From: Escherichia coli
GTDB lineage: Bacteria > Pseudomonadota > Gammaproteobacteria > Enterobacterales > Enterobacteriaceae
Assembly: GCF_024223415.1 (NCBI RefSeq)
Contig: NZ_CP100500.1
Length of the DNA: 64,000 bases
Direction: 5' to 3' (one strand)
The position numbers and the translations under genes were made by a program. Below, piece after piece: positions 27,745-43,364 of this stretch (the first letter of the stretch is position 1; each line of letters begins with the position of its first letter). Under the pieces are notes generated by a model. The model did no database searches and was not told the DNA's origin. It saw nothing but the letters and a program-made list of their open reading frames with translations.

Positions 27745-27941
27745 TACCGGCTGCGACACTTTTGAATAAAAGCGTCGACATTGCGGCGCTCATAACGAAC
27801 TACTTTTGCACTGAAACGAATTGGTGCCAGGATAGCCCGATGACGATGCTTAATATTCCACTCACATAGCGTTTTCTGTGTAATACCTAACTTTTGGCAT
27901 ACTTCATCCGGGGTGAGTAAATCGTCGGGTTTCTCGCTCAT
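27741..27941 (-). CDS. xis: excisionase/AlpA-like HTH protein
   Basis: The internal ATG of ORF 27741..28139 gives a 66-aa protein, MSEKPDDLLTPDEVCQKLGITQKTLCEW.... Its ATG overlaps the helicase TGA (ATGA). Confidence 0.7.
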   Translation of the reverse strand: MSEKPDDLLTPDEVCQKLGITQKTLCEWNIKHRHRAILAPIRFSAKVVRYERRNVDAFIQKCRSRY

Positions 27942-29332
27942 GCTATACCTCTCTTTTTCATGGCATCGAGCAGGATGTCCTGCACTGTTCGTTTTGAGTT
28001 GCGCCGCTCTATCACCATTTCGTCCATAGTGTCGGCGGCGATAATGTGGTGAATGAACACCGGGCGGTTGTGTCCGGCCTGAATCTGCCGGGTTGGCCCG
28101 ATGCGTTCGATAATTTGTTGGTACTGCTCCAGATTCCACCAGTGCGAGAAAAACACCAGTATGTTTCCGCCGTCCTGCATGTTCAGGCCGTGGCCCGCGC
28201 TGGCTGGGTGTGCAAAGAGAACAGGAATCTTTCCGGAATTCCAGTCGCGCAGTGTCTGTGGATCCTGGTCGAGGTGACGACCGCGAGGGAATGCTTTAAG
28301 CAAGCGTTCAAGATCGTGTTTCCAGTGATAAGCAACCAGCACAGGTGCGCCAGCTGCTTCGGTCAGTATGCTGTCCAGCGCTTGTAGTTTGGTGTCATGC
28401 AGTTCTGACCAACTTCCGGTGTCGTCTGTGTATACTGCGCCACTGGCGATTTGCAGACATTTCAGTGTCTTTGCCGCGGCGTTCGGTGCTTCGATGCCTT
28501 CGCCATTCAGCTCGAGGAACATTTCCTTTTCCATTTCACGATACTGCTGACGGGCCTTCGGCGGCATATCCACGCGGATTACGTTATGGATGGGGTCTTT
28601 GATATCGAACCAGTCGGCCGCATCCAGCGAGAGGGTCACATCGGCTAATGCTCGCTGTATTTCACCCTGTGAGTGAGCAAAAGGCTCCAGTTTAGTCCAG
28701 CTCTGTCCCGGAAACTGTATCGAGTTGAACCAGCGTGAGGTAAACGCACCGTAAGTGCGCCCGAGACGTTGCCCCTGGTCCACAAACCACGATTGTCCCC
28801 ACAAATCTACCAGGCCGTTCGGTGCTGGCGTACCGGTGAGATTTATCCAGCGCCGGACATACTTATGCGCCACTTTGCCCAGCGCCGCTGCGCGCTTACC
28901 ACCACCTCGCAGCCGGAAGGATTTTAGCCGGGTGCTTTCATCCGGAATGACAGTAACGAACGGCCATCGTTCTCCCAATTCCTCAACCAGCCAGACAAGG
29001 TTATCGTAGTTGATGGTGAACACGCTTGCGTTGCTGTTCGCCAGCGCTGCAGAGCGCGCTTTGGCGTTACCAACAATCGGCTGCACCTCAATATTACGCA
29101 GATGCCCCCATTTCAGCGCTTCATCCGGCCATGTGTTTGCTGCAACACGTAGCGGCGCGAGGACCAGCGCGGGGCGTGTTTCTGCCCCTGCCATAAAGAG
29201 ATCTTCCAGCGTAGTGAGCGTTGCCACGGTTTTACCCATCCCCATCCCTGCCCAGATGTTGCCGCGCAGGGTTTCGGTTTCGTGGTTGATGATGAGGTCC
29301 TGGTAAGGGCGAGGCGTGAAAATTTGTCCCAT
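27938..29332 (-). CDS. SNF2/DEAD-like phage helicase
   Basis: 464 aa with Walker A GMGKT, DEST(R) box, TGTPAPN motif III and C-terminal helicase motifs (GHGLNMQ..., QQIIERIGPTRQ). Confidence 0.85.
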   Translation of the reverse strand: MGQIFTPRPYQDLIINHETETLRGNIWAGMGMGKTVATLTTLEDLFMAGAETRPALVLAPLRVAANTWPDEALKWGHLRNIEVQPIVGNAKARSAALANSNASVFTINYDNLVWLVEELGERWPFVTVIPDESTRLKSFRLRGGGKRAAALGKVAHKYVRRWINLTGTPAPNGLVDLWGQSWFVDQGQRLGRTYGAFTSRWFNSIQFPGQSWTKLEPFAHSQGEIQRALADVTLSLDAADWFDIKDPIHNVIRVDMPPKARQQYREMEKEMFLELNGEGIEAPNAAAKTLKCLQIASGAVYTDDTGSWSELHDTKLQALDSILTEAAGAPVLVAYHWKHDLERLLKAFPRGRHLDQDPQTLRDWNSGKIPVLFAHPASAGHGLNMQDGGNILVFFSHWWNLEQYQQIIERIGPTRQIQAGHNRPVFIHHIIAADTMDEMVIERRNSKRTVQDILLDAMKKRGIA

Positions 29333-29376
29333 AGTATTTTAGCCAGTAGGGCGCGGGATAATCCCGCGCAAGAATG

Positions 29377-30099
29377 TCAGATTAGATCGGCGTAATAGGT
29401 GAAGTTGCCAAACTGCGGATGCCTCCAGCGCTTGCGGTTACCTTTCGGCGGTGTCGATTCGTTTAACAGCTTTTGAGCTGCTTGTTCGATCGCCGGAAGG
29501 TTAACGAGCAATCCCCGAACACCGGTGTCTGAACGTACCGGTATCCTGGCGAAGCCGATCAATTTCCGGCATGTTGAATCAGATAAACCTGTTTTCCATG
29601 CTGCTTTGCTGACGGGGACATATTCACCTTCAACATGAGATAAATTCGCTGGTGCGGCTGGTTGAGAATAGCCAGTTGCATCAAGACAGGCTTTCATTGT
29701 TGCTTCTGCTACGACGCGAGCAAGCTGGACGATGCCGTCGTTGATCGTAATGCTTGGCGCGGGCGCTGCTGATATTTGAACCTGCTCTTTTTCCCTTTCA
29801 AGTTCTTGCCAGCGGTCAACGATTTGTGCAGTGAATTCAGGACAGAGTTGAGCGACTACAACAATGCTATCGCGTCTGCCTTGTTCTCCTTCAAAGTTAT
29901 ATACTTCATCTTTGACTGTGTGGCCTAAGTTATTGATTCTTTCGATAAACGCCGTTGGCGGTTTTCGTATGATATCGCGCTCGACCAGTCTTTCGATGCT
30001 ACGTTTGACGTCACCCGGACGGCTACCTACCAGATCGGCAATCTCCTTATGGGTCATTGAAAGTTGCTTGGTATCGTTTATCAGTGTTAGAGTATTCAT
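29377..30099 (-). CDS. Rha-family phage regulatory protein (antirepressor-like)
   Basis: The N-terminus LSMTHKEIADLVGSRPGDVKRSIERL matches the Phage_pRha pattern. The C-terminal half is uncharacterised. Confidence 0.7.
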   Translation of the reverse strand: MNTLTLINDTKQLSMTHKEIADLVGSRPGDVKRSIERLVERDIIRKPPTAFIERINNLGHTVKDEVYNFEGEQGRRDSIVVVAQLCPEFTAQIVDRWQELEREKEQVQISAAPAPSITINDGIVQLARVVAEATMKACLDATGYSQPAAPANLSHVEGEYVPVSKAAWKTGLSDSTCRKLIGFARIPVRSDTGVRGLLVNLPAIEQAAQKLLNESTPPKGNRKRWRHPQFGNFTYYADLI

Positions 30100-30158
30100 G
30101 CTGTATTCTCCATTCAGTTAAAGACGCGCTGATAGTTACCGCTACCAGTGCGTTTTGT

Positions 30159-30335
30159 TTATTCATCCCACGGCTTGTTTGCAGCCTCCCTTGCGGCCTG
30201 CTGCGCAAAATAAATCAATTCAAAAGCTAACTGTTCTCCTTTTTCCAGCGAACTGAGAAGCCTTGCTGTTTCCAGCATGTCCGCGATATACCCGAAAATA
30301 TCTGCCTGATGTAACTGCGTGATCTTGATAGCCAT
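30159..30335 (-). CDS. hypothetical 58-aa protein
   Basis: The internal ATG at 30335 of ORF 30159..30416 is preceded by GAGG. First gene leftward from the Arc-type operators. Confidence 0.5.
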   Translation of the reverse strand: MAIKITQLHQADIFGYIADMLETARLLSSLEKGEQLAFELIYFAQQAAREAANKPWDE

Positions 30336-30374
30336 AGCGTTAACCTCGATGGAACCACTGCGGTCCATTTTAGT

Positions 30375-30413
30375 AAACCACCGTGGTTTATTGATGTCAA
30401 CACCACCGTGGTG
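30375..30413. promoter_or_regulatory. two palindromic operators sharing the core ACCACCGTGGT
   Basis: AAACCACCGTGGTTT (30375-30389) and CACCACCGTGGTG (30401-30413) lie in the 113-bp divergent intergenic region. Confidence 0.6.
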
Positions 30414-30448
30414 CATACTTTGAGAATCGAGTTTATGAGGTAGTTACT

Positions 30449-30763
30449 ATGAGTCGTGAAGATGCGCAGATGAAGATCCGTTTACCTGCGGAACTGAAAG
30501 AATTATTGGAGAATGCAGCCCGTGCTAACGGTCGTTCGTTGAATGCAGAGGTGCTTCAACGCTTAAGATCTTCATTTCCTGCAATAAATAAGCTGGAAAG
30601 CCAGAATACTCATGCGTTTTTATATCTACGACAAGCTGAAGGTATGGGGCTTGGACGCGAAGCTGAATCTTTGCTTAATGAGTGGGGCAAAAATATTGAA
30701 AAAAACACAGAACTCTTAGAAAGACTGCATGAACTCGTAGAAAATCGTTTGGGGAAAAAATAA
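30449..30763 (+). CDS. Arc/MetJ-type ribbon-helix-helix repressor with C-terminal extension
   Basis: MKIRLPAELKELLENAARANGRSLNAEVLQRL is a classic Arc-family RHH. GAGG RBS. Confidence 0.75.
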   Translation: MSREDAQMKIRLPAELKELLENAARANGRSLNAEVLQRLRSSFPAINKLESQNTHAFLYLRQAEGMGLGREAESLLNEWGKNIEKNTELLERLHELVENRLGKK

Positions 30764-30781
30764 TGTACCGTAACGAAATTG

Positions 30782-30922
30782 TTACTTAAGGTCTTTAGCT
30801 AGCCTGAATAATATTTCTGCATTTACTGAACGCATATTTTTCTTTGCTGTTTTCTTTAACTCCTCCGCTAATGCGCGGGGGATCCGTAATTTAAACTGTA
30901 AGTGCTCATCTGATTTTTTCAC
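30782..30922 (-). CDS. small Arc/Mnt-type RHH protein (46 aa)
   Basis: Not in the ORF track. The GTG at 30922 overlaps the VRR-NUC TGA (GTGA) and follows GGAGGGG. Translation: MKKSDEHLQFKLRIPRALAEELKKTAKKNMRSVNAEILFRLAKDLK. Confidence 0.65.
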   Translation of the reverse strand: MKKSDEHLQFKLRIPRALAEELKKTAKKNMRSVNAEILFRLAKDLK

Positions 30923-31188
30923 AATATCCCCTCCAGATTTTTGCTATCCAGCACCACCACGGTAAAGCCCAGTTTTCGCAGACGTTCATGTTCGCGCAAC
31001 TGGTCAGGTCGTGGTGGTTTGCCTGGCGCTTTGCATTCGACAAAGACGATGCGACCGCCGGGTAGCAGGACAATGCGATCCGGTACCGAGCGGCGACCGG
31101 GAGATACGAACTTAAAGGCCACACCGCCAGCTTTTTTCACTTCAGCGACGAGGTGCTTTTCGATAAGGCTTTCACGTTCACAGGCCAT
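30919..31188 (-). CDS. VRR-NUC domain nuclease
   Basis: 89 aa with PDRIVLLPGGRIVFVECK (D...ExK) and the downstream Q..E pattern typical of VRR-NUC. Confidence 0.8.
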   Translation of the reverse strand: MACERESLIEKHLVAEVKKAGGVAFKFVSPGRRSVPDRIVLLPGGRIVFVECKAPGKPPRPDQLREHERLRKLGFTVVVLDSKNLEGIL

Positions 31189-31399
31189 CGTCTGCCACCT
31201 TACGTTTTTCGCGTATGTTCTGCATCAGGCAAAAATCAGATCTGCGCTCACTCCATTCCTGATTGAGCGCGTTACGTGACTGGCGGTTGGCTTTGGCCCA
31301 GACCTTTGCTGCCCGATCGTACGCGCCGGACTGCTCAAGGCACAAAGCCTCCCGTGCAGTCTGGTAATAAAGTGGACTGTCCCGGTATTTAAATGACAT
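31178..31399 (-). CDS. PerC-family-like small regulator
   Basis: 73 aa. LEQSGAYDRAAKVWAKA...NQEWSERRSDFC resembles the PerC/Pch motif (A..LE..G.W.RAA..W......R.W...RR..C). From memory only. Confidence 0.4.
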   Translation of the reverse strand: MSFKYRDSPLYYQTAREALCLEQSGAYDRAAKVWAKANRQSRNALNQEWSERRSDFCLMQNIREKRKVADDGL

Positions 31400-31415
31400 A
31401 TATTTCGATTCCTGT

Positions 31416-31440
31416 AAAAAGCCCCTGACAGTGCAGGGGC
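31416..31440 (-). terminator. rho-independent terminator after the Bro-N gene
   Basis: gcccctg/caggggc stem followed by T5 on the minus strand. An identical copy lies at 35509-35535 after the AntA/KilAC gene. Confidence 0.7.
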
Positions 31441-31893
31441 GGGATTGATTTGAATTAACGAGGTAAGGCTGGTGGAATGTATTTGCCGATGCGGTCTTCT
31501 ATCGTTGGCAGAATACACATGCTGTCGTTAAAGCGATCGTGCAGTTTGTAGACCAGTTTCGAATCAGCCATTTCAAGCGCTGGCATTAACTGAGTCTGCC
31601 AGATTTCGTTGATGCGCCGGAAGTTATGACAGATCGCACGAAGATTATTAATGAACATTTCCTTCTCTGCGTCAGTGACTTCTGTTTGTGTTTTCTGAAT
31701 ACGCTTTGTGCTGCCGTTCCGGTAAAAGCGTTCCTGCGCAGCGACAGCCTCATCCACAGTCGGATAACAGCCAACGTATACGTTTTTCTCGCCGTCCCAT
31801 GCATAAGCCCGGTACGGATTGTATTTGCTCCGGTGATGGTAAATCATCTTCGGCAGACATTCCCTGTGCGGCGCCAGTATCGTGGAGGACTGC
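31416..31893. repeat. ~480-bp direct repeat, copy A (terminator plus 3' half of the Bro-N gene)
   Basis: Aligns colinearly with 35509-35987, roughly nine in ten bases identical by eye. Confidence 0.9.
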
Positions 31894-32231
31894 GGAACGG
31901 CGGTATCTTTCTCGATAAGGTCAAGCACCCAGCGACGAAATTCTTTGGCTACCGGAGTCGTTGCGAATATTGCTACCAGGTGGGCACCGCGCAGGGAGAA
32001 AACTCGCACATCTTTTTCACGTAAGCTATTGTTTATTCCGTTGAACCTCATTTTGAGGTTGATTGACATACCCGGGGTAAACTCATCTGCGTTGCGGTTG
32101 TATATCTGGGTGATTTTATCGCCGCGCGAATACCCCAGCGCAGTAGCCAGCGTTGCGGCGGTGAACCACTGCCTGCCGTTGTGTTCGGTAGTTTCGAGAA
32201 CGTGAGATTTGAATACGAGTTGGGTACTCAT
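31455..32231 (-). CDS. Bro-N domain protein with AP2-like C-terminal module
   Basis: ATG at 32231 (AAAGGA RBS). N-terminus FKSHVLETTEHNGRQWFTAATLATALGY is Bro-N. C-terminus YRAYAWDGEKNVYVGCYPTVDEAVAAQERFYRNG is AP2-like and shared with the 35547 gene. Confidence 0.75.
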   Translation of the reverse strand: MSTQLVFKSHVLETTEHNGRQWFTAATLATALGYSRGDKITQIYNRNADEFTPGMSINLKMRFNGINNSLREKDVRVFSLRGAHLVAIFATTPVAKEFRRWVLDLIEKDTAVPQSSTILAPHRECLPKMIYHHRSKYNPYRAYAWDGEKNVYVGCYPTVDEAVAAQERFYRNGSTKRIQKTQTEVTDAEKEMFINNLRAICHNFRRINEIWQTQLMPALEMADSKLVYKLHDRFNDSMCILPTIEDRIGKYIPPALPR

Positions 32232-32446
32232 AGTTTTATGTCCTTTGCAATATTTTGAATTCACCCCTTTTGAGAGGGCGGTCAGGCGCTCAAAACCGTG
32301 CAAAGTCGGCGGGCGTATTTCCCTTACGGGTATTGTATTAGCCTCACGCCCGACCATTGAATTCTCAATATCGTGGACATAAAAAATCCGCATGTCTGTC
32401 GGGTGCGGTTTCCGCTTTGCAAGGTGTTTTGAGCACCATGACGCGG

Positions 32447-32476
32447 AATATAGCCCCGTTAACGCGACATTGTCAA
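32447..32476 (-). promoter_or_regulatory. sigma-70-like promoter for the Bro-N gene
   Basis: Minus strand TTGACA, 18 nt, TATATT, about 215 nt upstream of the ATG. Confidence 0.5.
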
Positions 32477-32498
32477 ACTGAAGAATTTTACGGATAGC

Positions 32499-32533
32499 AA
32501 AAACCCCCGAACTGGTGAGGAACAGGGGTTTTT
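32499..32533. terminator. hairpin terminator downstream of the TIR-like gene; near-copy of the host acpS terminator
   Basis: aaaaacccccgaactggtgaggaacaggggttttt compared with host aaaacccccgaactggtaaggaacgggggtttt (25203-25235). Confidence 0.6.
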
Positions 32534-32591
32534 ACTTTACTACTGATTTCGCGGTACGCTGATCTCAAACAGACGAGATTATCACCAGACT

Positions 32592-32606
32592 TGTAAAGTA
32601 AGCAAT
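32592..32606. repeat. 15-bp direct repeat TGTAAAGTAAGCAAT (left copy)
   Basis: Perfect copy of 33366-33380. Lies 7 nt outside the TIR-like stop codon. Confidence 0.95.
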
Positions 32607-32613
32607 GGGCGGA

Positions 32614-33357
32614 TTAAGATGAAGCGTTCGCTATCTGAGCGTCGCTGAATGTGAAACCCGCCTGTTTAAGACGCTGGATTAAGCGGGGTACTGTCTCCCG
32701 AACATGGTCATTAAAGTTGAGATAAAGAATACCGGCGGCATCAGAAGGCTGCTCAAGGTGTTGTTTCTGCAGGATGACCACGTTACTGCGACCGAGTGAA
32801 GATAACAGCATCCCCATTTCTAAAACTACGTTTTGGCGTGCCCTGGGCTGGGCTGCTTCCTGGCCGTCTCTTTTGGCGTATCCCACATCATCGGGAGTGA
32901 GGAGAACAATGCCGAAACGCGTCGCTGTCCGTCCCTGACCAATTTCACGTTCAAGCTCTTCAATTATCGTAAGCCCGGTCCCACCGGTATTCTGCAAAAT
33001 AAAATGGTCAGGTAATCCAAGCTTATGAAGAATAAGTTCAAGCTGCTCTTTTGCTACATGATCGTGACCGTGAACGATGAAAATCTTTTTTGCTGGTTCT
33101 TGCATCATGACTGGAGCGTTACCCAGGTGTTCATTAATAATGGCTTCAACCTCAGGTTTTGCCGCTTGTGAACCCTGAATCAAAATCGTTCCGGTGTGGT
33201 AAAGCGTTATGATGGCACCATTACTTAAACGATAACAATCATGACCGGTTTTGTTTTCTTCTCCGGTAACATCAAATCCGGATTCGACTAAAAATTGACG
33301 AAAAGTATCGACAGCGTATGGGTATTTGAGTGCCATTTCATTGAGTTCCTGCATCAT
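32614..33357 (-). CDS. TIR-like domain protein (Cap12/PycTIR-type TIR_like) with TBP-fold-like N-terminal domain
   Basis: 247 aa. C-terminal KIFIVHGHD...IVLLTPDDVG...ARQNVVLEMGMLLSSLGR...PSDAAGILY matches the TIR-like family, including the conserved Glu. N-terminal NGAIITLYHTGTILIQGSQ resembles the RNase HIII N-domain. Confidence 0.7.
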   Translation of the reverse strand: MMQELNEMALKYPYAVDTFRQFLVESGFDVTGEENKTGHDCYRLSNGAIITLYHTGTILIQGSQAAKPEVEAIINEHLGNAPVMMQEPAKKIFIVHGHDHVAKEQLELILHKLGLPDHFILQNTGGTGLTIIEELEREIGQGRTATRFGIVLLTPDDVGYAKRDGQEAAQPRARQNVVLEMGMLLSSLGRSNVVILQKQHLEQPSDAAGILYLNFNDHVRETVPRLIQRLKQAGFTFSDAQIANASS

Positions 33358-33365
33358 TGTGTTCC

Positions 33366-33380: not shown

Positions 33381-33410
33381 AGTTAACAAAGTTGCAACGA
33401 CAACGATCAC

Positions 33411-35477
33411 CTAATCTTTTCTGTAACGGTACGCCTCGAATCCTCCGGCGTTTAGTGGAATGCTCGTGGCCCAGTCAGGAACGGTTGCCAGTAACTGGCT
33501 GAGATGTTCTGCTGAGTAATCGGGTGAGTCAGGGGCCTCACTTATAATTTCATCGTGTACCGTCAGCACAATGCTGTAACCGGCATCTTCGATAAGCGGC
33601 ATGTTTCCGGCCAGAACGTCGCGGGCGGCCGCCTGGGTGACGTTCTCCACCAGCTTTCCGCCGTAGGTTTTGAGTCGTTGCCATTTACGCGAATAAGAGT
33701 TAACACCCATATAGGTGATATCCCCTTTTTCGATAACCGGAGACGGGTAGCATACAGCGCGTCCGGATGGTAGCTGTATGCGCAGCCACGCGCCATCGCG
33801 GCGGATTTTAAGATAACCGCAATACAATGTTTTTTGCGGTGTGGCGATTGCAGTGCGGACGGTGCGCTCCAGTTCGTACCAGAAATCGCAGGTCGCCGGG
33901 TGCGCCCTGCGCCACAGGCGCTTGAGCGAGTCACATGCGATGAATACACGCTCGGACAGGCCAAAGGTCGACTTACGTTTAACCGATTCGTCGTACCAGC
34001 TTTTCGCCTCGCGGATAACATCGCGGGGAATGTTTGGCAGTGCGGCGTTCGCCAGCTCGTCGAGATCGAGACCGTAAACCAGAGCAAAAGTGATGAAAGC
34101 CGATACACCACCTCCATAACCCAGACCGAGTTCCATGACTTTACCGATCTGACGCATGTGTTTATCAACATCATCTGGTGCAATATCGAAAGCTTTTGCA
34201 TACGCCAGTTTATATAAGTCCGGACCCGTTCCGGCGTCGTACTCTCTGAATGCATTCAGTTTCCATTCTTCTCCCGCCAGCCATGCCAGCATACGGCCTT
34301 CAATGTTCGACAAGTCACTTACCACCAGTTTTTTGCCTGTTGGCGCGATAATGCAGCCACGTAACGCTGAACTGGTTAGTTCCATGATATTGTCAAACAG
34401 CAGGTCTGCACATCCGGCTTTCAGTGCTTCGATGCCTTCGTCTATTTGTTCCTGTTTTAGTGAAGGGCGGGGAAGGTTCTGGGGCTGGAATAGCCGTCCG
34501 GCCCAACGACCGGTACGTGACGCCCCGCAGAACTGTAGCGTACCGCGTAAGCGCCCGTCGTGGCTTACGCCTTTCATCAGTGCCTTGTATTTACTGGTGC
34601 TGGTAGTACTGGCCTGCAGGCGGATAGCCAGCAGTTCTTTCACGGCAGATGGTAAATTGGGGTCGGCAATACGACGTTCCAGAGTACTGCGTTGCATGTC
34701 TGGTAGCTCCACACCGTAGGATTCAACAATGTGCTTAATCAACGCGTCCCGTTGTGTGGCTGCCTGCACTTCGCCATCAGTCATTTCCTGTGTACGCTTT
34801 GCCAGGCGCTTTTGCTCCTGGTCTACCGCTTCGATCGCAGCGCGCGCGAGTTGAATGTCCATGCAGACGCCCCGGTCGTTGATCTGCTGATCACGATGCC
34901 AGAGTGCCAGTTCTGTCCCCTGATAATTCCACTTCGGCAGACGTTTATAGACTTCGCGCATTGCCTCGATATCCAGTCCGGCGTAAGCAACAAAGCGCCG
35001 CCATTCTTCCGGGTGGGTTTTGCTGGTGGCCCGGCGCAGTTTGCTGTTTTTCGGGCGTGGTTTGCACAGTAGCTGAATTAGTGACTTGCCTTCTTTATCC
35101 TTCGCTTTGTCCTGCGGGACGCCCAGCACTTCGCAAAGAGCGCCCAGCGCCCCCGGAAGACCATGCGCCAGCGCCTGCACCATTGTGTCGCGCCAGCGTT
35201 CAGTAGCTGGTGACATGTCTGGCATACAATGACGAAGTATCGTGCGGTCAAAGTGCGAATTGTGCGCCCAAACCTCCACATCCGGGTTTTTGAGTGCGAG
35301 ACGTAATTCCGGGGGGATTTTTTCGCCTGCGGTCAGGTCCCACACCTGCACGGGATCGTTATTGATGGCCCAGGCAAAAAGCATAATTTCAGCGCCTTCT
35401 GCATATGCGTGGGTACCGTTTTTTATCGGTATTTCAGAGAAGGTTTCAAGATCGAGCCAGAGAATGTTTGCAGGCAA
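33411..35477 (-). CDS. family A DNA polymerase with 3'-5' exonuclease domain
   Basis: 688 aa. Exo motifs [22 protein letters not shown]. Pol motifs DLSNIEGR (A), [16 protein letters not shown] (B), VHDEII (C). Confidence 0.9.
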
Positions 35478-35508: not shown

Positions 35509-35987
35509 AAAAGCCCCTGACAGTGCAGGGGCGGGATTGATTTGAATTAACGAGGTAAGGCTGGTGGAATGTATCTGCCGATGCGGTCTTCTATGGTCGG
35601 CAGAATGCACATGCTGTCGCTGAAGCGGTCATGCAACTGGTAAACCAGTTTAGAATCCATTTTTTCGAGAGCAGGCATTAACTGCGCCCGCCAGATTTCG
35701 TTGATGCGCCGGAAGTTATGACAGACGGCGCGGAGATTGTTGATGAACATTTCCTTCTCTGCGTCAGTGACTTCTGTCTGTGTTTTCTGAATACGCTTTG
35801 TGCTGCCATTCCGATAGAAGCGTTCCTGAGCAGCAACAGCCTCATCCACGGTTGGATAGCACCCTACGTAAACGCTCTTCTCTCCGTTCCATGCGTAGGC
35901 TCTGTACGGGTTGTATTTGCTCCGGTGATGGTAAACCATCTTCGGCAGACACTCCCTGTGTGGCGCCAGTATCGTGGAGGATTGCTG
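35509..35987. repeat. ~480-bp direct repeat, copy B (terminator plus 3' half of the AntA/KilAC gene)
   Basis: Colinear with 31416-31893. Includes an identical terminator hairpin at 35509-35535. Confidence 0.9.
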
Positions 35988-36308
35988 GTGCAGTTTGCGT
36001 TCGCACTCGATGAAGTATCGGCGGATCTGGCGGCCTTTTTCGTTGCGCTCCACCATCGCCAGTTCTTTGGCCGTGTCGAGGGTGAGGTGGTAGTCCTTAC
36101 AAAGAACATTTTTACGCTTTCCAGTTTTGGAAAACGTTACGATATAATCCTGATTTTCAACGAATTCATAGTCTGCAATTCGTGATGTAATCCACGCTGC
36201 AAACACTTTCCCTACCCCAAGGAATGCGTGCAGATCGCGAGCATTGCAGAGCAGGGTGGTTTCGTTGGCGATAGCGCCGTTGAAAACGGGGATGAGTTGA
36301 GTTGCCAT
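35547..36308 (-). CDS. AntA/KilAC-type antirepressor-like protein with AP2-like C-terminal module
   Basis: ATG at 36308 after GAGGT. N-terminus NARDLHAFLGVGKVFAAWITSRI...LTLDTAKELAMVERNEKGRQIRRYFIECE is ANT/KilAC-like. The C-terminal ~150 aa are shared with the Bro-N protein. Confidence 0.7.
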   Translation of the reverse strand: MATQLIPVFNGAIANETTLLCNARDLHAFLGVGKVFAAWITSRIADYEFVENQDYIVTFSKTGKRKNVLCKDYHLTLDTAKELAMVERNEKGRQIRRYFIECERKLHQQSSTILAPHRECLPKMVYHHRSKYNPYRAYAWNGEKSVYVGCYPTVDEAVAAQERFYRNGSTKRIQKTQTEVTDAEKEMFINNLRAVCHNFRRINEIWRAQLMPALEKMDSKLVYQLHDRFSDSMCILPTIEDRIGRYIPPALPR

Positions 36309-36470
36309 CACAGTTACCTCTAACGGTGAAATTCACCGCCACCACTGAGTTGCAAATCTCATATGGGTGGCGAACTGACGAGGTTTGCAATACCGGCGTT
36401 AGAGGAAACCGGCGCGCCGAAGCGCCCCCGCCAGCCCGCCATAATGCGAACGTGGCAAAGCTTGCGACAA

Positions 36471-36492
36471 TAAAAAAGACGCTGGCGCGTCT
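36471..36492 (-). terminator. rho-independent terminator inside the noncoding island
   Basis: agacgc/gcgtct stem followed by T6 on the minus strand. Confidence 0.6.
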
Positions 36493-36651
36493 GGTGTCGC
36501 CCCTAACAATTCCGGGTTGCAAATCCCGATCTCCATTTGGGAGATTCGGTGAGCATAAACCGGAAGGGGGCGATGAGTCAATATCGGGGTAGCAGGGCGA
36601 CTGGGTGCTAACCAGAACAATACAGGTAGCTCCGGGCATATTCCCCTTTGC

Positions 36652-36691: not shown

Positions 36692-37240
36692 TTAAATCAG
36701 TGCTTCAGCATCAGCACCTTCGCTGATATCGTCGAAATCGTCAGCGCTTGCCACTCCGCCGCCAGCGAATGCATCGCCGTCTCGCAGGAACTGGACTCCG
36801 CCGAGTGAGGCATTAATGCGTTTACCGAAATTATTGTCCTGTGCCCAGATATCGATAACGGCGTTTACATAGCACCCTGCATAGGGACGTCCATCAGCCT
36901 GAGTAAGTGGCGAACGATCGCGATCAAGAACAGCCGGGCGCGCTTTGTTAGCAGCATTCAGGAAGAAATTACCGGGGAAACCTTCATACTCTGCTTTTTC
37001 ATCGCCGTCATGCAGGCACAGATTGAGTTTCTTCTCCAGTTGGTTATAAACAGCCTCCCACTTCTCTCCCCATTTTTCCTTTGCGACCTGCTTCATTGCT
37101 TTACGGATTTCTTCCAGTTGTGGGTGTTCGGGAGACATTAAAAATACAGCGGAGAAACGCGGATCGCCTTCGCCGTTTACAGTTTTAGCTTCAAACAGCG
37201 CAGGAAAAGCCAGACGAACATTGTTCAGCTTCAGTTTCAT
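36692..37240 (-). CDS. DUF2815-family phage protein (SSB-like OB fold)
   Basis: The N-terminus MKLKLNNVRLAFPALFEAK and an acidic C-terminal tail (DDFDDISEGADAEALI) are typical of DUF2815 and SSB tails. Confidence 0.7.
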   Translation of the reverse strand: MKLKLNNVRLAFPALFEAKTVNGEGDPRFSAVFLMSPEHPQLEEIRKAMKQVAKEKWGEKWEAVYNQLEKKLNLCLHDGDEKAEYEGFPGNFFLNAANKARPAVLDRDRSPLTQADGRPYAGCYVNAVIDIWAQDNNFGKRINASLGGVQFLRDGDAFAGGGVASADDFDDISEGADAEALI

Positions 37241-37255: not shown

Positions 37256-38560
37256 TCAGATGAGGTCAGCGGCGAGCGCGTCGTCGGACACGTCATCGAA
37301 ATCATTTACAGGGTTAATATTGAGTGCGGGGCGCGGATCTGAATCAGGAACGACGGTGGGTTTACCGTCCGCTCGTGTTATCAGGGCCTCGACTTTTGGC
37401 CAGCGGCGCGGACTGGCTTTTTTGATGAGTTTTTCTGCTTTGGCAGGGCTAATCAGTTTAAAGTCGAAAACTTCTTCAGTTTTATACCTGAACTGATCCT
37501 TCAGAAGAGCTCGAGCTGCTTCCTCATCACTCCAGGTCCGGTTACCTTGTTTTCCTGTTACCAGTTTAAACCCCGGTACCGTATGCCCGGCATGGAGTTC
37601 ATTGTGAACCCGGTCACGTAGCGCTTTGCAAAAAGACTCAATCAGGTCAACATGGCTGTAAATGTCTGCCAGTTGTTCAGCGGTCAGTAGTGGTACACGC
37701 TTAACGGCATCTGCGAGTTGCTCGCCAACGGGTCTGCTCAGGTCAACGAAGTCGTCCGCAACGGCGTTAAGTCTGGCCTGTGCTTCTGCTGAACACAGCC
37801 CACCTTTTGCTTTACAGAAGAGGCACTGTTTCTCGCCTGGTGTGAAGTTTTCAGGTGGCAGGGTTTCGACGCCTTCGCAATCGGCGATGTTGAACATCAC
37901 GATCACACTGGCGGCAGCTTCCTGCGCCCGTTTGCCGAATGCCTGCAGTTCCTCCACCGTCAGGGACCACTCTGAAACGTGGTTAATCCGCGGCTGGTGG
38001 ATGAACAGGCGCACCGTCTCGAAGTCGTACAGAAGGCTGAACTGCTCGAGCACGCCCAGGGCATACAGCTGCAACTGCTCGTTCTGCTCAGCGTCGACAC
38101 GCACTCCCTTACCGTATTTCAGGTCGTGGATCTGCAGTTCGTTACCCGCGATGATTATGCAGTCGGCAGTTCCGAAAGAGTCTTCCACACCGACGATGTG
38201 GGAGAAGTCTACGCGTTGCTCAACCAGCAGCGTGTTGCCCTGTGCCAGTGACCAGACTGTATCAACATACCGGCCAACGGCTTCGACCATTTCCTCATCC
38301 ACCTGTGGGCCAGATGTATCATCAGGATTTGCGCGAAGGGGGTATGAGCCGAGAAACATAGAAACATTGCATCCGGCGTAGTGTTCCGGGTGACTTTGCC
38401 TGTTTCGCAGGACTTTTTCTGCAAGCGCGTGCGCCGCAGTACCTTCAACAGCAAAGGATGTTTCTTTGTCAGGCTGAGTGGACTCCAGCGCCAGACTGCC
38501 GCTACAACGCATCCATCTGTGGGCGGCTGATGGAGATAATTTTGCATGAACCTCGGGCAT
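37256..38560 (-). CDS. DUF2800-family PD-(D/E)XK (Cas4-like) nuclease
   Basis: The N-terminus [18 protein letters not shown] is the DUF2800 hallmark, with a later D...DLKYGKG nuclease core and a C..C..C cluster. Confidence 0.7.
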
Positions 38561-38562
38561 AA

Positions 38563-39486
38563 TTAACCCTCCAGCGCTTTTTCAGCAAGGGCTATCACGT
38601 CTGCGAGTTTATCGTCAGCGACTTCACCGAGTTTTCTGGCTCCCTGTTTTTCCAGAATGGCAATAGCTTCTGCCCGGTAACCGCCTTTTGCAAGCTGGAG
38701 GATCAACCCTTCGGCCTGTTTACGCAGTGCAGCAAAATCGGTCTGTTCGCCAGTATCTTCCACGGCATCACCACCAGTTTCGGTACCGCTTTTTGCTGCG
38801 TCTCTGCGTGCAAATTCTTCCTGCAGCTGAAGGTACTCAACACGGTTGATCTCGATATGGCCTTTTTTCAGCATCTCGTTCAACTTGCGTAAGGTGTGGA
38901 GTTCACTGGCTGCTGTGCCGGATACATTTTTGACGTAAAACGGCCCCGTGCGTTCTCCATCTTTGTTACTGGCCTTTTTCGGCTTAACTTCATCACGCCC
39001 ATCTGCAGGTGCATCAAGTAGCTGCTCGGCAAAAGCACGTCGCTCGCCGATAGTTGGCAGGTCGTCCCAGAACTTAAGAATGTTGCGGGACAGGTCCAGA
39101 AGAGCGGGTTTATGCAGTGCCCTGGCTCGTTTGACGCACTGCAATGTGCTGTCGAGAGCATCAATCTGAACTACTCGTTTATCACCTTCAGCATCACGGT
39201 AAGCAACAGCTCGTTGCAGCATGTCTTCAGTAACAGGGGTAGCTGACGGGTAGAAACCAGCCAGTGCGATAACGTCGCTGAACTCCAGATCATCCAGTGT
39301 CATTACCGCTTTATTTTCAGTTTCATCTGCTGTTTCGGTTGCTGTATCCCGACATTCCTGTACTTGTGAAATGGCGTCAGGATGCATAACAATACCTGAT
39401 GCCATTGTGCGGATAAGACGTTCAAGCAGCACATTATGTTGCGCCAGAAGTTGGTTATTAAGTTCGAGACTGGTTTCTAAGCTCAT
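38563..39486 (-). CDS. hypothetical acidic early protein (307 aa)
   Basis: Tightly packed with neighbouring genes. No motif recognised. Confidence 0.6.
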
Positions 39487-39665
39487 ACTGTGGTCCTCGC
39501 TACAAGGAGAATGAAAGTGATGATCAGGCCAAGTGCAGTGGCAACGACCAGACCTGTCATCAAATCGAAGTGTTTACGGCGATAACGGAGAACATCGCGC
39601 CCCGTCAGTCGATGGATGTGTTCAGGTTTCATCGGTTGTATTCCTTTTTTCATATCGGGGAGCAC
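39483..39665 (-). CDS. small tail-anchored membrane protein
   Basis: About 50-60 aa with a C-terminal TM segment (LVVATALGLIITFILLV). Start uncertain (GTG 39665, or ATG 39653 or 39632). Confidence 0.5.
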   Translation of the reverse strand: MLPDMKKGIQPMKPEHIHRLTGRDVLRYRRKHFDLMTGLVVATALGLIITFILLVARTTV

Positions 39666-39748
39666 GCTGTTGCGAGTGCGCTTTCAGACATAAAAAAGCC
39701 CGTCACTTGCGGCGGGCAAAGACTACACACAGCAATTACATGGATGAT

Positions 39749-39943
39749 TCAGTTGGTATTGTGCGTACGTGGTACCACGAGGTTGAAGCGGACACGCCAG
39801 TGCGTTGCAATGGTATGCAGGAAAGCACCACATCTAGGGCAGTGCTCATAACATTCGTTGATTTGGTATCGTTTTGGCTTTGGTGTCTGAAGTTGTGTTT
39901 GGCAAGCAGGGCATTCACCTTTGAGCGGTTTATACGTTTTCAC
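39749..39943 (-). CDS. zinc-ribbon protein (64 aa), first gene of the leftward early operon
   Basis: GTG start after GAGGAA. CPAC...CPRC pairs. Confidence 0.55.
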   Translation of the reverse strand: MKTYKPLKGECPACQTQLQTPKPKRYQINECYEHCPRCGAFLHTIATHWRVRFNLVVPRTHNTN

Positions 39944-40146
39944 GCCGTTTCCTCATTCAGTTCACTTTGGTGGTTCGGCGGCTTCGACTTGTATCAGTAG
40001 ACAGTGCTTCGCCGCACCCCAAAGGGAACTTACTGACCCGTATTGCCGACATCCTGTCCCGCCACGGTCCCGACGCATGGTTTAGAGTCGCGCCGTTCGA
40101 CTTGATGAGGGATAAATTACTATGTTTATTGTATTACGTAAACCAC

Positions 40147-40181
40147 AAATATGGTATTTATGGTTGCAAAAATACCATATT
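40147..40181. promoter_or_regulatory. inverted pair of AAATACCATATT(T) sites (candidate OL operators)
   Basis: aaatatggtattt (40147-40159) and aaataccatatt (40170-40181) are reverse complements. A related AAATACCACATA lies in the cI-cro region. Confidence 0.45.
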
Positions 40182-40266
40182 ATTGATATTTAAGTTAATT
40201 TAGTTGGTAGACAATCGGGGCGGGCGGTATGGCGGGAGGGCTTTTTCGCCCTCTTTCTGGATGGGA

Positions 40267-40890
40267 TTATCTTTTGCGGCGGTAAATACGATGTTCAATC
40301 ATGACCCCTACGATCTGTAAGGGGACATCTGCACTTCGTAGCACGGGATAGTCGGGATTCAGGGGGACCAGTTCAAAATCATCAACGCCGATACCCAACG
40401 GGCGGTATTTTTTGAAAGTGGCCTCATACCCGTTGTTCTTTGCAACGACGAATTCGCCAGGCATGGGGCATAAATCCGGGTCAATTATTACAATATCGCC
40501 TTCCTTAAACTCCGGTTGCATACTGTCACCATCTATCCGCAGGGCGAAGCAGGACTCAGGTACGTCGGAATCCGCGAGAACGTATTCCATATTTCCATCC
40601 ATGTCCGTAGCGTCTTTTGCTTCCGTTAGCGCACCGGCCTGTACGTAACTGAGGATCGGGATGCGGCGGGTACTTATTTCCGCCAGGGGCATTATATTCC
40701 TGCCATTTAAAAGCCAGTCGGGACTGCATTTCAGTGCCTTTGAAAGCTCTATGATGTTGCGGGGCTTCCGGGTCTTTCCGCTTTCAATAGTCTCAATGGA
40801 TTGCTGGCTGACCCCCGCGATTGCTGCAACTTCTGTTTGTGTCATCCCGAGTTCTGTACGGCGTGCTTTAAAGCGTTCTGCAAGTGACAT
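40267..40890 (-). CDS. cI: CI-like repressor (HTH_XRE plus S24 LexA-like peptidase)
   Basis: ATG at 40890 after GGGGG. N-terminal HTH (LGMTQTEVAAIAGVSQQSIETIESG). C-terminal GDSM serine and FKK lysine. Confidence 0.9.
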   Translation of the reverse strand: MSLAERFKARRTELGMTQTEVAAIAGVSQQSIETIESGKTRKPRNIIELSKALKCSPDWLLNGRNIMPLAEISTRRIPILSYVQAGALTEAKDATDMDGNMEYVLADSDVPESCFALRIDGDSMQPEFKEGDIVIIDPDLCPMPGEFVVAKNNGYEATFKKYRPLGIGVDDFELVPLNPDYPVLRSADVPLQIVGVMIEHRIYRRKR

Positions 40891-40928
40891 GGTGTACCCC
40901 CTGATTCCTGATTTTTTGCTCTCCCTTA

Positions 40929-40990
40929 TTAATACAATTTTTGTTGTAGTTGACAAACATCATTTATTGTCGCTAAATACCACATAAATT
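40929..40990. promoter_or_regulatory. divergent cI/cro promoter-operator region
   Basis: Plus strand: TTGACA (40950-40955), 18 nt, TAAATA (40974-40979). Minus strand: TTGTCA, 16 nt, TATTAA. Palindromes TACAAnnnnnnTTGTA and GACAA..TTGTC, plus an AAATACCACATA site. Confidence 0.55.
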
Positions 40991-41006
40991 GTAGGAGACA
41001 ATAATC

Positions 41007-41216
41007 ATGACACTTGCTACCCGAGTAAAAAACCAGCGTAAGGCTCTTGGCCTGACGCAGGTTATGCTGGCAGAACGCACAGGGATTAGCCAGCAGGCCA
41101 TTAACCGCATTGAAAGCGGCCTTATATCCCGTCCCCGTTATCTGCTGGAAATAGCTGTTGCCCTGAACTGCGACCCTAACTGGCTGTTGCATGGTACTCC
41201 CGCGGATAAGACGTAA
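41007..41216 (+). CDS. cro: Cro-like HTH_XRE repressor
   Basis: 69 aa, LGLTQVMLAERTGISQQAINRIESG. Divergent from cI. Confidence 0.85.
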   Translation: MTLATRVKNQRKALGLTQVMLAERTGISQQAINRIESGLISRPRYLLEIAVALNCDPNWLLHGTPADKT

Positions 41217-41219
41217 CTT

Positions 41220-43364
41220 ATGGCCCAGATCAATCTCTCATACGGCCGGGAACTGGTAGACAACCTTCCTGTGCCCTGTACTGATGCCGATTTTAACCGG
41301 ACATTTAAGCGTGTTAAAAAGTGGGCTCGTGCTATCGGCGCAACCAAACAGGATACAAAAAGCCAGCTTAACGCCAAAAAAGCGCGTCTGCCCTACATCT
41401 GGCACGCAATGAAGGACGTCACCAAAGGTCGTAACGCTGCTAATGCGGGCAACCGTGATGTGCTCTTCATGGATATGGACGGCTGTAACGCGCCTGCATG
41501 GGGCGCTTTACGCGATGCGCTGGCCTGTTTCTCATGTTTCACCTATTCAACGCCAAGTCATCTGCACCCCACTGCAAACGGGGAACATCGCTGGCGTATC
41601 TGCCTGGAGCTGAGTCGCCAGGTCACGCCCGAAGAGTACAAGCGTCTTGGCCTTGCGGTTGAAAACTGGCTGATGGATTGTATCAGCCTGCTGGACGATT
41701 ACACCGTCAAGTGGGACCACAGCGTTTACAACCCGGACCATATGGTTTTTGCCCCTGATGAAAAGGCCATCTTTGAACGTTTTACCGGGGAACCTGTTGA
41801 CGTTGATATCCTGTTGGCCAGCGCACCGGAAGTTACCATCCCTGAAAAAGCATCTTCCACAGACCGCGATGATTTGTCACGCGCTGTCGAACTGAACGGC
41901 ATCAGTCAGGAAACTTTTGACGACCTGCGCGAAGTGATGTGGCATCCGGCTGTACTGGCAGACGCTGAGCCGGGTTGCGGTAAATACCATAGCTGGGCGG
42001 CGATGGGAAATCGTCTGGCATGGTTTAAGGGAACCGACTGGGAAGACGCAGCCCGTCAGCTTTGGGTCGACTGGTCGATAGCGGGTGGTGGCGATGGCAT
42101 CAGCGCTGAACATAAATGGGACAGTAACCAGCTTACCGCCGAACGAACCGGTTACCAGGCCATTTTCGCCCATGCGCAGAAAGCAGGGGTCGCTAACCCC
42201 GCGACCGACCGTATGCGCGGTTTTGTCGCCGGTGCGAATGACTTCGACGAGTTGCCACCGGAAAAACCGGAGCTGCCAAAGTCCAGACCGCACACAGGCG
42301 GCTACGGTAAGCCGGGAAAGTTCATCATTGAAGGGATGGTGCCGCACGGGGTGACCATGCTCTATGGAGCTTCGTCATCGTTCAAATCCTATGGCGTTAT
42401 CTCCATGCTCTGCCGTGTGGCGACGAAAACTCATCGCTGGGGCGGGCGTAACCTCAAAGGTGGCGCTGTTCTGTATGTTGCCGCTGAGGGTGGCAGCTCC
42501 GTTATGCCGCGTGTCGGCGCATGGGCGGATAAGTACAATGACGGTAAGCCACTGGATTTGTTCTACACCCTGCCACTGGCGGTTGATCTCTCTGTCCCCG
42601 CAAACGTCACAAAGATGGTAAACGAGATTAAGCGCATAGCGTACCACACCGGCGAACCTGTCCGGCTTGTGGCCGTCGACACGCTGTCGCAGTCCATGAT
42701 GCAGGGCGAGGAAAACAGCGCCAGTGATGTGGCAAAATTCATGGCGGGCGCAACCAGGGTGTTCACCGAAACGGGCGCAGCGGTGATTATCGTTCACCAC
42801 AGCGGCAAAGACAGCAGTAAGGGGATGCGTGGCTCTTCTGCTGCCTTTGCTAACGCCGATGCGGTCATTCGCGTGGAACGCATCGGCGACGCGGTGAACC
42901 TGATTAACGAGAAACAGCGTACCGGTCCGGTACAGCCGACCCGCGGTTACATGGTACCGACAGTGCAGCTTCCTGACGACGTTATCGCGGCTAACGAAAC
43001 GTACGATGATGAGTATACCAGCACTGAAGGGGAAGTATATGACCCTGTAAGGCTTACCACCGAGCGCGTGTTTGAAGATGCACCAATGGCGGAGATCACC
43101 CCACTGCTGGTGGATAAGGGCGACGGGAATACCAAAGGCAGCAGCGATGAATCCTGGGTATGGGAAAAGCTGGAGGCCTCCGGCGGCAGCATCAACCGTT
43201 CTGCGCTTCGCGAGTTATGGAAGGATGAAACCGATAAAAGTACCGGTCAGTTACGTGCGGTTCTGGGGCGCATGAAAGAGAAGTATTACATCGTTGAGCG
43301 CGACGGCGTAATCAGGGATCCGCTATGCAATGGCGTACCACCTGGAGGGGATGAAATTGCTTAA
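41220..43364 (+). CDS. bifunctional primase-polymerase / RepA-like (AAA_25) helicase
   Basis: 714 aa. N-terminal AEP-like motifs (FMDMDG; SHLH). C-terminal RecA-fold with Walker A GASSSFKS, Walker B LVAVDTL and IIVHHSGKD. Confidence 0.75.
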   Translation: MAQINLSYGRELVDNLPVPCTDADFNRTFKRVKKWARAIGATKQDTKSQLNAKKARLPYIWHAMKDVTKGRNAANAGNRDVLFMDMDGCNAPAWGALRDALACFSCFTYSTPSHLHPTANGEHRWRICLELSRQVTPEEYKRLGLAVENWLMDCISLLDDYTVKWDHSVYNPDHMVFAPDEKAIFERFTGEPVDVDILLASAPEVTIPEKASSTDRDDLSRAVELNGISQETFDDLREVMWHPAVLADAEPGCGKYHSWAAMGNRLAWFKGTDWEDAARQLWVDWSIAGGGDGISAEHKWDSNQLTAERTGYQAIFAHAQKAGVANPATDRMRGFVAGANDFDELPPEKPELPKSRPHTGGYGKPGKFIIEGMVPHGVTMLYGASSSFKSYGVISMLCRVATKTHRWGGRNLKGGAVLYVAAEGGSSVMPRVGAWADKYNDGKPLDLFYTLPLAVDLSVPANVTKMVNEIKRIAYHTGEPVRLVAVDTLSQSMMQGEENSASDVAKFMAGATRVFTETGAAVIIVHHSGKDSSKGMRGSSAAFANADAVIRVERIGDAVNLINEKQRTGPVQPTRGYMVPTVQLPDDVIAANETYDDEYTSTEGEVYDPVRLTTERVFEDAPMAEITPLLVDKGDGNTKGSSDESWVWEKLEASGGSINRSALRELWKDETDKSTGQLRAVLGRMKEKYYIVERDGVIRDPLCNGVPPGGDEIA

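Follow-up and report, generated by a model that had tools for sequence, protein, structure and literature searches.

The set of replication genes built round a phage-encoded DNA polymerase is known from the temperate phages BPP-1, APSE, Xfas53, BcepC6B and YeP4, and has been described as a duf2800-gp2.5-polA module (PMC8093625). Within the DUF2815 family, the function of a T7-type SSB (a protein that binds single-stranded DNA) was demonstrated for Enc34 ORF6 (PMC5686142). The APSE phages of Hamiltonella defensa are mosaics in which Bordetella/Bcep/Xylella-like early genes, including that of the polymerase P45, are combined with P22-like late genes, and the virions of BPP-1 (Rauchvirus) and YeP4 are of the podovirus type and not of the lambda type (PMC8579659). 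Here we describe a prophage within a 64,000-nucleotide stretch of Escherichia coli DNA (contig NZ_CP100500.1 of assembly GCF_024223415.1; this whole stretch is called the window) that carries early genes of this kind next to late genes of the lambda and phage 21 type.

Chromosomal DNA of E. coli (lepA-lepB-rnc-era-recO-pdxJ-acpS-yfhL), 99% identical to sequenced strains, takes up the first 26 kb of the window. The left end of the prophage adjoins yfhL and starts with an integrase gene, and the prophage continues beyond the end of the window. Its genes were mapped from lists of open reading frames (ORFs) and by profile searches (Pfam, phrog, NCBIfam and PADLOC). We consider it probable that the element is an apparently intact temperate prophage in which an early half of the BPP-1/APSE/YeP4 type, bringing its own replication set, is coupled to a late half of the lambda/phage-21 type, and that the two halves are exchangeable. 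Gene identities, intact motifs, a gene order in common with relatives, and an iteron array that is conserved in position with a lineage-specific repeat were established in the analysis and carry this reading. A leftward operon encodes the gp2.5-type SSB, a DUF2800 exonuclease, a proofreading family-A polymerase, a VRR-NUC protein, an SNF2 helicase and an excisionase; a rightward operon encodes the primase-helicase, followed by the putative iteron origin. The late half consists of a Q antiterminator, P21-type lysis genes, cos, and head and tail genes.

Replication genes of the early arm

The order of genes along the early arm is integrase, excisionase, SNF2, small genes, VRR-NUC, polymerase, SSB, DUF2800, a 307-residue gene with no annotated function, the divergent cI and cro pair, and primase-helicase. 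The conserved features are as follows.

26341..27744, + strand: tyrosine integrase, 467 amino acids (PF00589)
27741..27941, - strand: excisionase-like HTH protein, 66 amino acids (HTH_17 match)
27938..29332, - strand: SNF2-family helicase, 464 amino acids, the final conserved gene in the leftward early operon (PF00176, 4e-12; Helicase_C; phrog_62, 1e-156)
30919..31188, - strand: VRR-NUC nuclease, 89 amino acids (PDB 4qbo, 8.9e-15, and 4qbn, 2.7e-12; phrog_93, 7.6e-32)
33411..35477, - strand: family-A DNA polymerase with a 3'-5' exonuclease domain and without a 5' nuclease domain, 688 amino acids (phrog_17, 1.3e-127; PF00476)
36692..37240, - strand: DUF2815 / T7 gp2.5-type single-stranded DNA-binding protein (PF10991, 1.4e-44)
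37256..38560, - strand: DUF2800 PD-(D/E)XK (Cas4/RecB-like) nuclease (PF10926, 3.6e-104; PDDEXK_1, 2e-7)
38563..39486, - strand: conserved 307-amino-acid protein, first large gene of the leftward operon (phrog_6784, 5e-170)
40267..40956, - strand: cI-type repressor with HTH and S24 LexA-like autopeptidase domains (Peptidase_S24, 8e-21; HTH_3, 1e-12)
41007..41216, + strand: Cro-like HTH protein, divergent from the repressor (HTH_3, 3.4e-15)
41220..43364, + strand: primase-helicase, 714 amino acids (AAA_25, 3.9e-28)
43365..43660, no strand: putative replication origin, with A+T-rich DNA at 43365-43440, seven GCGCAACA iterons at 43446-43620 and a G+C-rich hairpin at 43585-43610

BPP-1 (bbp29-bbp50) and YeP4 have this early gene order in common with the prophage, from the integrase through the cI and cro pair to the primase-helicase; downstream in the operon, VRR-NUC and SNF2 are followed by excisionase/integrase, matching BPP-1 bbp43-bbp50 and YeP4. 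Differences are that in the prophage, as in YeP4, the integrase is encoded on the opposite strand, and that BPP-1, unlike the prophage, has no annotated Q gene. The integrase is 99% identical in amino acid sequence to that of E. coli F1022 at the yfhL site, where the H10407 prophage also lies, and the excisionase-like protein is 100% identical to an annotated HTH regulator of F1022.

The six components named in the original prediction (primase-polymerase/helicase, DUF2800 nuclease, DUF2815 SSB-like protein, family-A polymerase, VRR-NUC nuclease and SNF2-type helicase) are all present and look intact, each at or beside the position predicted for it. The arm has every element of the described module, namely a DUF2800 gene beside a DUF2815 gene, an intact family-A polymerase, VRR-NUC and SNF2 genes, and a primase-helicase gene after cro. 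Searches with lambda proteins (tblastn) identified no homologue of O, P, exo, bet, gam, N, Q or int (N proteins diverge fast, and no profile or nut-site search was made for N), in agreement with the proposal that a polymerase-based set stands where lambda has red/gam and O/P. Unlike in lambda, the replication genes are divided between leftward and rightward operons.

The polymerase is a divergent family-A enzyme, of which PF00476 covers part only. Its motifs, read from the translation, are all intact (Exo I LDLET, Exo II NSHFD, Exo III YAGLD, motif A DLSNIEGR, motif B, and motif C VHDE), so that inactivating changes in this gene, raised beforehand as a reason for doubt, were not found. Its amino acid identity is 91% to the polymerase of vB_EcoM-606R2, 73% to that of YeP4, 69% to BPP-1 bbp42, 65% to APSE P45, and 57% to those of Xfas53 and BcepC6B. 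The SNF2 helicase is 65% identical to BPP-1 bbp47 and 72% to the YeP4 helicase. The DUF2815 protein, which is 67% identical to BPP-1 bbp40 and 63% to its YeP4 counterpart, probably also anneals DNA; the adjacent gene encodes the DUF2800 nuclease, 44% identical to BPP-1 bbp38 (annotated as 'exonuclease') and 60% to the YeP4 protein. The VRR-NUC protein (54% identical in BPP-1, 74% in YeP4) is a probable junction resolvase: its catalytic PD..VE-x-K residues align with those of 4qbo and 4qbn, two solved small VRR-NUC-type nucleases, and the Pfam VRR_NUC model scored only 19.9 bits for it, under the cut-off.

The original label of 41220..43364 as a primase-polymerase/RepA-like helicase is supported, because the catalytic residues are invariant and the PriCT-2 region aligns, though Pfam misses the AEP domain. 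The protein comprises an AEP PrimPol domain (residues ~1-200), a PriCT-2-like helical region (~225-330), an SF4 RepA/DnaB-like ATPase (~370-570) and a small C-terminal helical/strand domain (~640-705), which we propose binds DNA. An AlphaFold model (26 homologues) was compared with solved structures; its mean predicted local distance difference test (pLDDT) score is 67.5, with 80-95 over the N-terminal 200 residues. An AEP fold, the DxD and SxH motifs and the acidic motif III residues were found, as was a RecA-like core of the AAA_25/DnaB type, and D85-x-D87, S113-H114 and W165-D166 are invariant among homologues. Residues 255-302 align with the PriCT-2 domain of BPP-1 bbp29 (hhalign), the rest of the bbp29 Prim-Pol region giving no match. 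The Pfam Prim-Pol model PF09250 did not match, residues 1-349 being empty even at E<=5, and the C-terminal 133 residues likewise matched nothing in Pfam at E<=5; a profile of the 26 homologues searched against PDB sequences returned RepA alone, at E 0.22.

The place of this gene after cro is held in BPP-1 by bbp29 and in YeP4 by a primase, both of another helicase class: the BPP-1 protein is of the Prim-Pol + PriCT_2 + D5_N/DUF5906 type, and the YeP4 protein is of the VapE type with an N-terminal half that has no Pfam match, whereas the helicase here is SF4 AAA_25. In Salmonella, an N-terminal half 82-94% identical to that of the prophage protein is joined to a VapE-type helicase, so the primase and helicase halves are exchangeable.

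An iteron origin had been predicted next to this gene, and the array lies just past its end. Seven of the 11 GCGCAACA sites in the window fall within 175 bp (43446-43620), directly after the primase-helicase gene; in lambda, the iterons are inside O. A repeat cluster, an A+T-rich region and an initiator gene thus occur together, and the layout is repeated after the homologous gene in five lineages, E. coli F1022, Salmonella, Arsenophonus, Serratia and Xenorhabdus. The repeat itself is CGTAACA in Serratia and CGTGACA (nine copies) in Xenorhabdus. A position and layout that are kept with a lineage-specific repeat are expected of an initiator-binding origin. In these same two genera the C-terminal domain of the primase-helicase is 24-31% identical to that of the prophage, as against 70-80% for the ATPase core. 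An iteron array that keeps a fixed place with a differing repeat in each lineage offers a ready system for the study of origin specificity. An ORF at 43330-43674 (+ strand, 114 amino acids, 'hypothetical protein' in RefSeq relatives) was considered as a gene and rejected: it has no family match and overlaps the iterons, and the Serratia and Xenorhabdus relatives have no gene called at this place. The stretch is probably origin DNA that encodes no protein.

Late genes and exchange of virion modules

The late half, of which the window holds the part up to gene H, comprises the following.

44346..44813, + strand: Q-type late antiterminator, at the border of the early arm and the late genes (PF06530, 2.5e-50)
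45188..48349, + strand: lysis cassette of P21-type holin, DUF1327 protein, lysozyme and Rz (Phage_holin_2_1, 1e-35; Phage_lysozyme, 7e-24; Phage_lysis, 9e-29)
51025..64000, + strand: cos-like site (51025-51036) and lambda-family packaging, head and tail genes Nu1 to H

The likeness to lambda and phage 21 lies in the cI/cro layout, Q, the lysis cassette, cos, the Nu1-A-W-B-C-D-E head genes and the FII-H tail genes. The prophage thus has what is expected of a lambdoid phage (divergent cI and cro, Q, a lysis cassette followed by virion genes, and cos packaging with Nu1, A, W, B, C, D, E through H) except for an O/P-type initiator and helicase loader, in place of which it has the primase-helicase and the polymerase. 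The cos-like site is one mismatch from lambda cosN and lies where the lambda alignment predicts. The description of the late genes as almost lambda is right for the tail genes, which alone are near-lambda, and does not hold for the head and lysis genes, which are phage-21-like. By tblastn the late proteins are 36-96% identical to lambda proteins, and the head proteins among them 65% (A), 63% (B), 52% (C), 61% (E) and 36% (Nu1); at the DNA level the head genes are ~94% identical to phage 21-type phages, and ~90% nucleotide identity to lambda is confined to the tail region and a short segment close to cos (in a window that lacks the right end of the prophage).

The same early arm occurs with other late genes. 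Its frequency was estimated from the presence of the polymerase/SSB/nuclease core in 27 of 60 evenly spaced rows taken from 357 match records, scaled to 5426 complete E. coli genomes; on this basis the arm is present in ~160 of the 5426 (~3%), including enterotoxigenic E. coli H10407 and O55:H7 strains. These E. coli arms are always accompanied by a Q antiterminator and a lambdoid-style lysis cassette, and all enterobacterial relatives examined have a Q gene after the primase region. The arm is coupled with late genes of the myovirus type in 123 complete E. coli genomes, each covering at least 80% of a 23-kb query. The prophages of this 606R2/H10407 type occupy the same yfhL site with the same integrase and have Q and the lambdoid-style lysis cassette after the arm; compared with the window, their SNF2, VRR-NUC, polymerase and SSB-DUF2800-307-residue blocks are 83-97% identical in nucleotide sequence. 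Their late genes form a myovirus set (DUF1073 portal, DUF2184 capsid, DUF3383 sheath-like protein and baseplate J), their primase-helicase is of the VapE or DUF5906 type, and their immunity region also differs. The H10407 prophage itself has a VapE-type primase, Q, a lambda-family holin and a virion module like that of vB_EcoM-606R2. Beyond E. coli, Serratia marcescens has the arm together with P22-type genes for portal, scaffold and coat, and Xenorhabdus and Arsenophonus have it with a myovirus-type set.

The combination in the window is seen less often. With a 22.6-kb query running from the polymerase to the lambda-type portal, both parts were found joined in two of the 5426 complete genomes, F1022 and B771. 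Where it aligns, F1022 is 88-97% identical to the window in nucleotide sequence, its immunity region and cargo genes being different. The identical 714-residue primase-helicase is, in addition, indexed in 280 blocks of a public-assembly collection. Among the contigs listed with this identical protein, all five carry the polymerase arm, with 18 similar places beyond those listed; all four of these contigs that are long enough have lambda-type Nu1 and A, and three have W and the portal gene.

The hybrid is therefore a rare-looking but widely sampled recombinant in a common modular prophage family, and hybrids of such a kind are already in the literature. APSE follows the same hybrid logic with a P22-like podovirus as its late partner, whereas the prophage has a lambda/21-like siphovirus module with cos; APSE also carries a toxin cassette, and the prophage does not. 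Packaging in the P22-like APSE is headful. The view that the mosaic is unusual was not supported, as first put, by these comparisons, given that the order of the arm is that of BPP-1 and YeP4, that the APSE hybrid has been described (PMC8579659) and that ~3% of complete E. coli genomes contain the arm. That this exact mosaic might prove to be a common and characterised phage type, the outcome that was to count against its novelty, came out in part: the kind is common and described, and no isolated, characterised phage with the exact combination was found in the phage collection. No record there pairs the early arm with lambda-type virion genes, as judged by a DNA search and by the 60 best polymerase protein matches listed, and our literature search found no paper on the E. 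coli elements (606R2-type phages, or lambdoid E. coli prophages with a polymerase module).

These observations suggest that virion genes of the lambda/21 module are able to function alongside replication genes of an entirely different kind, as they do in N15, where a virion module of this type is found with a linear-plasmid replication system. A wider proposal is that in Enterobacterales the early arm of the BPP-1 type, with its integration and immunity genes, its own replisome, its iteron origin and Q, forms one portable, host-replisome-independent cassette able to combine with no fewer than four unrelated systems of virion and packaging genes (lambda/21 cos siphovirus, P22-type, 606R2-type myovirus and BPP-1-type podovirus). 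The replication operon would at the same time be a hotspot where defence and counter-defence genes collect as cargo (TIR PDC-S35 here; SIR2 and Nmad5 in relatives), and the initiator would be an unusual fusion of an AEP primase with an SF4 helicase, having a P-loop that is non-canonical but conserved, and origin repeats that vary from lineage to lineage. We put this forward tentatively, as a possibility that we hold to be somewhat less probable than its opposite.

Proposed replication and alternative explanations

The replication genes resemble the T7 replisome in comprising a family-A proofreading polymerase, an SF4 helicase-primase fusion, a gp2.5-type SSB, an exonuclease and a junction nuclease, for which the T7 counterparts are the gp5 polymerase, gp4 primase-helicase, gp2.5 SSB, gp6 exonuclease and gp3 endonuclease. 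The prophage differs from T7 in its AEP-type primase, its iteron-type origin and its being temperate; the primase of T7 gp4 is of the Toprim/zinc-finger type, the T7 origin is promoter-dependent, and T7 uses host thioredoxin for processivity. We know of no processivity partner for the prophage polymerase.

From the gene content we infer each of the following biochemical steps, and with them independence from the host replisome. After repressor cleavage, the primase-helicase would recognise the GCGCAACA iterons, probably via its variable C-terminal domain; it would then melt the adjoining A+T-rich DNA, form an SF4 ring helicase and prime with its AEP domain. The phage polymerase would extend these primers together with the gp2.5-like SSB, in the manner of the T7 replisome. 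The exonuclease and annealing SSB, together with VRR-NUC and SNF2, would run recombination-dependent replication, in which branched concatemers would be made and resolved for cos packaging. Initiation and elongation would proceed without DnaA, DnaB/DnaC, DnaG or Pol III; the host would still have to supply ligase, primer removal and topoisomerases, and perhaps a processivity factor as well.

Several observations weigh against this reading. No clamp or other processivity factor, ligase, 5'/flap nuclease or topoisomerase was identified among the prophage genes in the window; the replisome is therefore not self-contained and host functions are still needed, and the original prediction of a full, self-contained replication set is an overstatement. 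The Walker A motif of the primase-helicase is G-A-S-S-S-F-K-S (residues 383-390, window 42364-42390), in which Phe replaces the Gly before Lys. As this departs from the canonical GxxxxGK[ST], ATPase activity is only assumed; a Walker B motif (VAVDT) is present, and the G-x-S-S-x-F-K-S P-loop is kept in 22 of 22 AAA_25-type homologues aligned, down to ~53% overall identity. Arsenophonus retains GCGCAACA iterons, yet its C-terminal domain is only 40% identical to that of the prophage, which makes the link between this domain and iteron specificity a loose one. In H10407 the polymerase gene is frameshifted and the SNF2 gene has an internal stop (RefSeq; H10407 locus 19859-21933 and 15636-17030, respectively), so replication genes decay in some lysogens. 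Finally, the window stops within gene H and the right end of the prophage lies beyond it, so that the prophage can be called apparently intact for the part within the window only.

The frameshifted H10407 polymerase would also suit a division of labour in which the primase-helicase and iterons initiate and most of the DNA is made by the Pol III holoenzyme of the host, as for P4 alpha and N15 RepA, the polymerase/SSB/nuclease/VRR-NUC/SNF2 cluster serving recombination, repair or gap filling as an equivalent of lambda red plus nin. The cluster occupies the place of lambda exo/bet/gam, the neighbours of the polymerase are of recombination type (an exonuclease, an annealing-type SSB (PMC8093625) and a junction-resolvase-type nuclease), and the missing clamp or other processivity partner points the same way. 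Yet the polymerase keeps all its catalytic and proofreading motifs, is conserved at 65-91% amino acid identity among phages of E. coli, Yersinia, Bordetella and Hamiltonella, and co-occurs with the primase-helicase in every relative examined. Such conservation and co-occurrence give the T7-like pattern of a dedicated replicase, and we think bulk synthesis by Pol III unlikely, though of the alternatives it deserves the most attention.

The two H10407 lesions, like the split TIR gene and shortened polymerase in some draft contigs, could instead be signs that the prophage is decaying or defective and that its genes no longer function together as a set, and a right end outside the window leaves room for this. 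The conserved arm genes, however, align over essentially their full length with their homologues and have intact catalytic motifs, close relatives of the early arm have been deposited as phage genomes (vB_EcoM-606R2 and others), and an identical primase-helicase recurs across many independent assemblies; we give a decayed prophage little credence. The suspicion that the polymerase arm and the lambda-type genes were brought together by a chimeric assembly was raised only for the rarity of the combination among complete genomes, and nothing was found in its support. As the junction (primase, iterons, CoiA, Q, P21 holin and Nu1/A) is 95-97% identical in nucleotide sequence in the closed F1022 genome and is also present in independent drafts, we regard an artefact as extremely improbable.

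If replication by the phage's own primase-helicase and polymerase is the correct reading, a widespread E. coli prophage family, in ~3% of complete genomes, probably replicates without DnaB/DnaC, DnaG or Pol III. Its members would then be natural test cases for host factors and defence systems that act through the host replisome, and for the control of a T7-like replisome in a temperate phage. The original suggestion that such independence could help to evade defences aimed at replication is speculative. The value of the present work is modest and mostly descriptive.

Cargo slots and minor features

Three cargo slots break up the conserved replication genes. The TIR, Bro-N, Ant/Rha-like, Arc and AntA genes that interrupt the module were absent from the gene list first drawn up for this locus. 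These genes and four other minor ones are:

29377-30099, - strand: Ant/Rha-like HTH protein (phrog_63 anti-repressor, 2.5e-21; the 'Rha' label comes from the annotation of a phage record under a DNA match)
30159-30416, - strand: small ORF
30449-30763, + strand: Arc-like repressor (PF03869, 3e-12)
31178..31399, - strand: small PerC/ANR-like protein, its gene being conserved just downstream of that of the polymerase (PerC, 3e-4)
31455-32393, - strand: Bro-N protein (Bro-N, 6e-8)
32614-33357, - strand: TIR-domain protein, 247 amino acids, just downstream of the polymerase gene (CAP12/Pycsar TIR, 5.6e-31)
35547-36311, - strand: AntA-type antirepressor (AntA, 9.6e-25)
36166-36639, - strand: ORF
43661..44386, + strand: CoiA-like zinc-finger/nuclease protein between the origin and Q (CoiA_nuc, 2e-14; CoiA_N, 4e-13)

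The segment 29377..30763 is absent from F1022 and H10407 at the DNA level, and the slot at 35547..36639 holds Nmad5, HNH, Band_7 or hypothetical genes in relatives. Relatives also have SIR2, Nmad5, Dcm methylase and DUF4406 genes in the slots that flank the polymerase gene. The TIR protein of the prophage matches the PADLOC candidate single-gene defence family PDC-S35 (8.9e-107), and Nmad5 has been reported as an anti-Tmn protein (PMC11846954). To judge from their contents, the slots look like a hotspot for defence and counter-defence genes, which would make them places to seek new genes of both kinds. In some draft contigs the TIR gene is split in two. The small ORF at 30159-30416 had been considered as the VRR-NUC gene and was rejected, having no matches; the VRR-NUC gene is that at 30919-31188. 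The PerC/ANR-like protein is 80% identical to an 'ANR family' gene product of F1022 and 66% to its YeP4 equivalent.

The CoiA-like gene travels with the SF4 primase type and has the same place in the Serratia and Xenorhabdus relatives. The N-terminus of its product weakly matches DruB (Druantia). In the immunity region, a TTGACA box and ACAA..TTGT palindromes were read directly at 40930-41000; cI homologues are annotated at 207-209 amino acids, and the true start of cI is probably near 40890.

The 307-residue protein has no Pfam, NCBIfam or PADLOC match and 604 homologues, the named ones from Enterobacterales. An identity based on its fold was sought and set aside: the AlphaFold2 model is helical with a pLDDT of only 61, and no PDB entry was matched by Foldseek at an E value under 0.7. 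Only the last ~58 residues are common to the equivalent YeP4 gene (74% identity), and the match in BPP-1 is weaker (46 residues, 41%). In BPP-1, bbp36 (8777-9706 of the BPP-1 locus, 309 amino acids) is annotated with 'variable region 2' and lies two positions upstream of the DUF2800-type exonuclease gene. Its position roughly matches that of the 307-residue gene; no similarity to bbp36 was detected, the sole BPP-1 match being at the end of bbp35.

Between Rz and cos, a direct repeat of ~268 bp (48575-48842 and 50362-50626) flanks a 1.5-kb insertion of low G+C content with two ORFs that have no Pfam match (48735-49760, 341 amino acids; 49839-50336, 165 amino acids). Both copies of the repeat align to a single site in F1022, and the segment looks like a moron insertion with target duplication.

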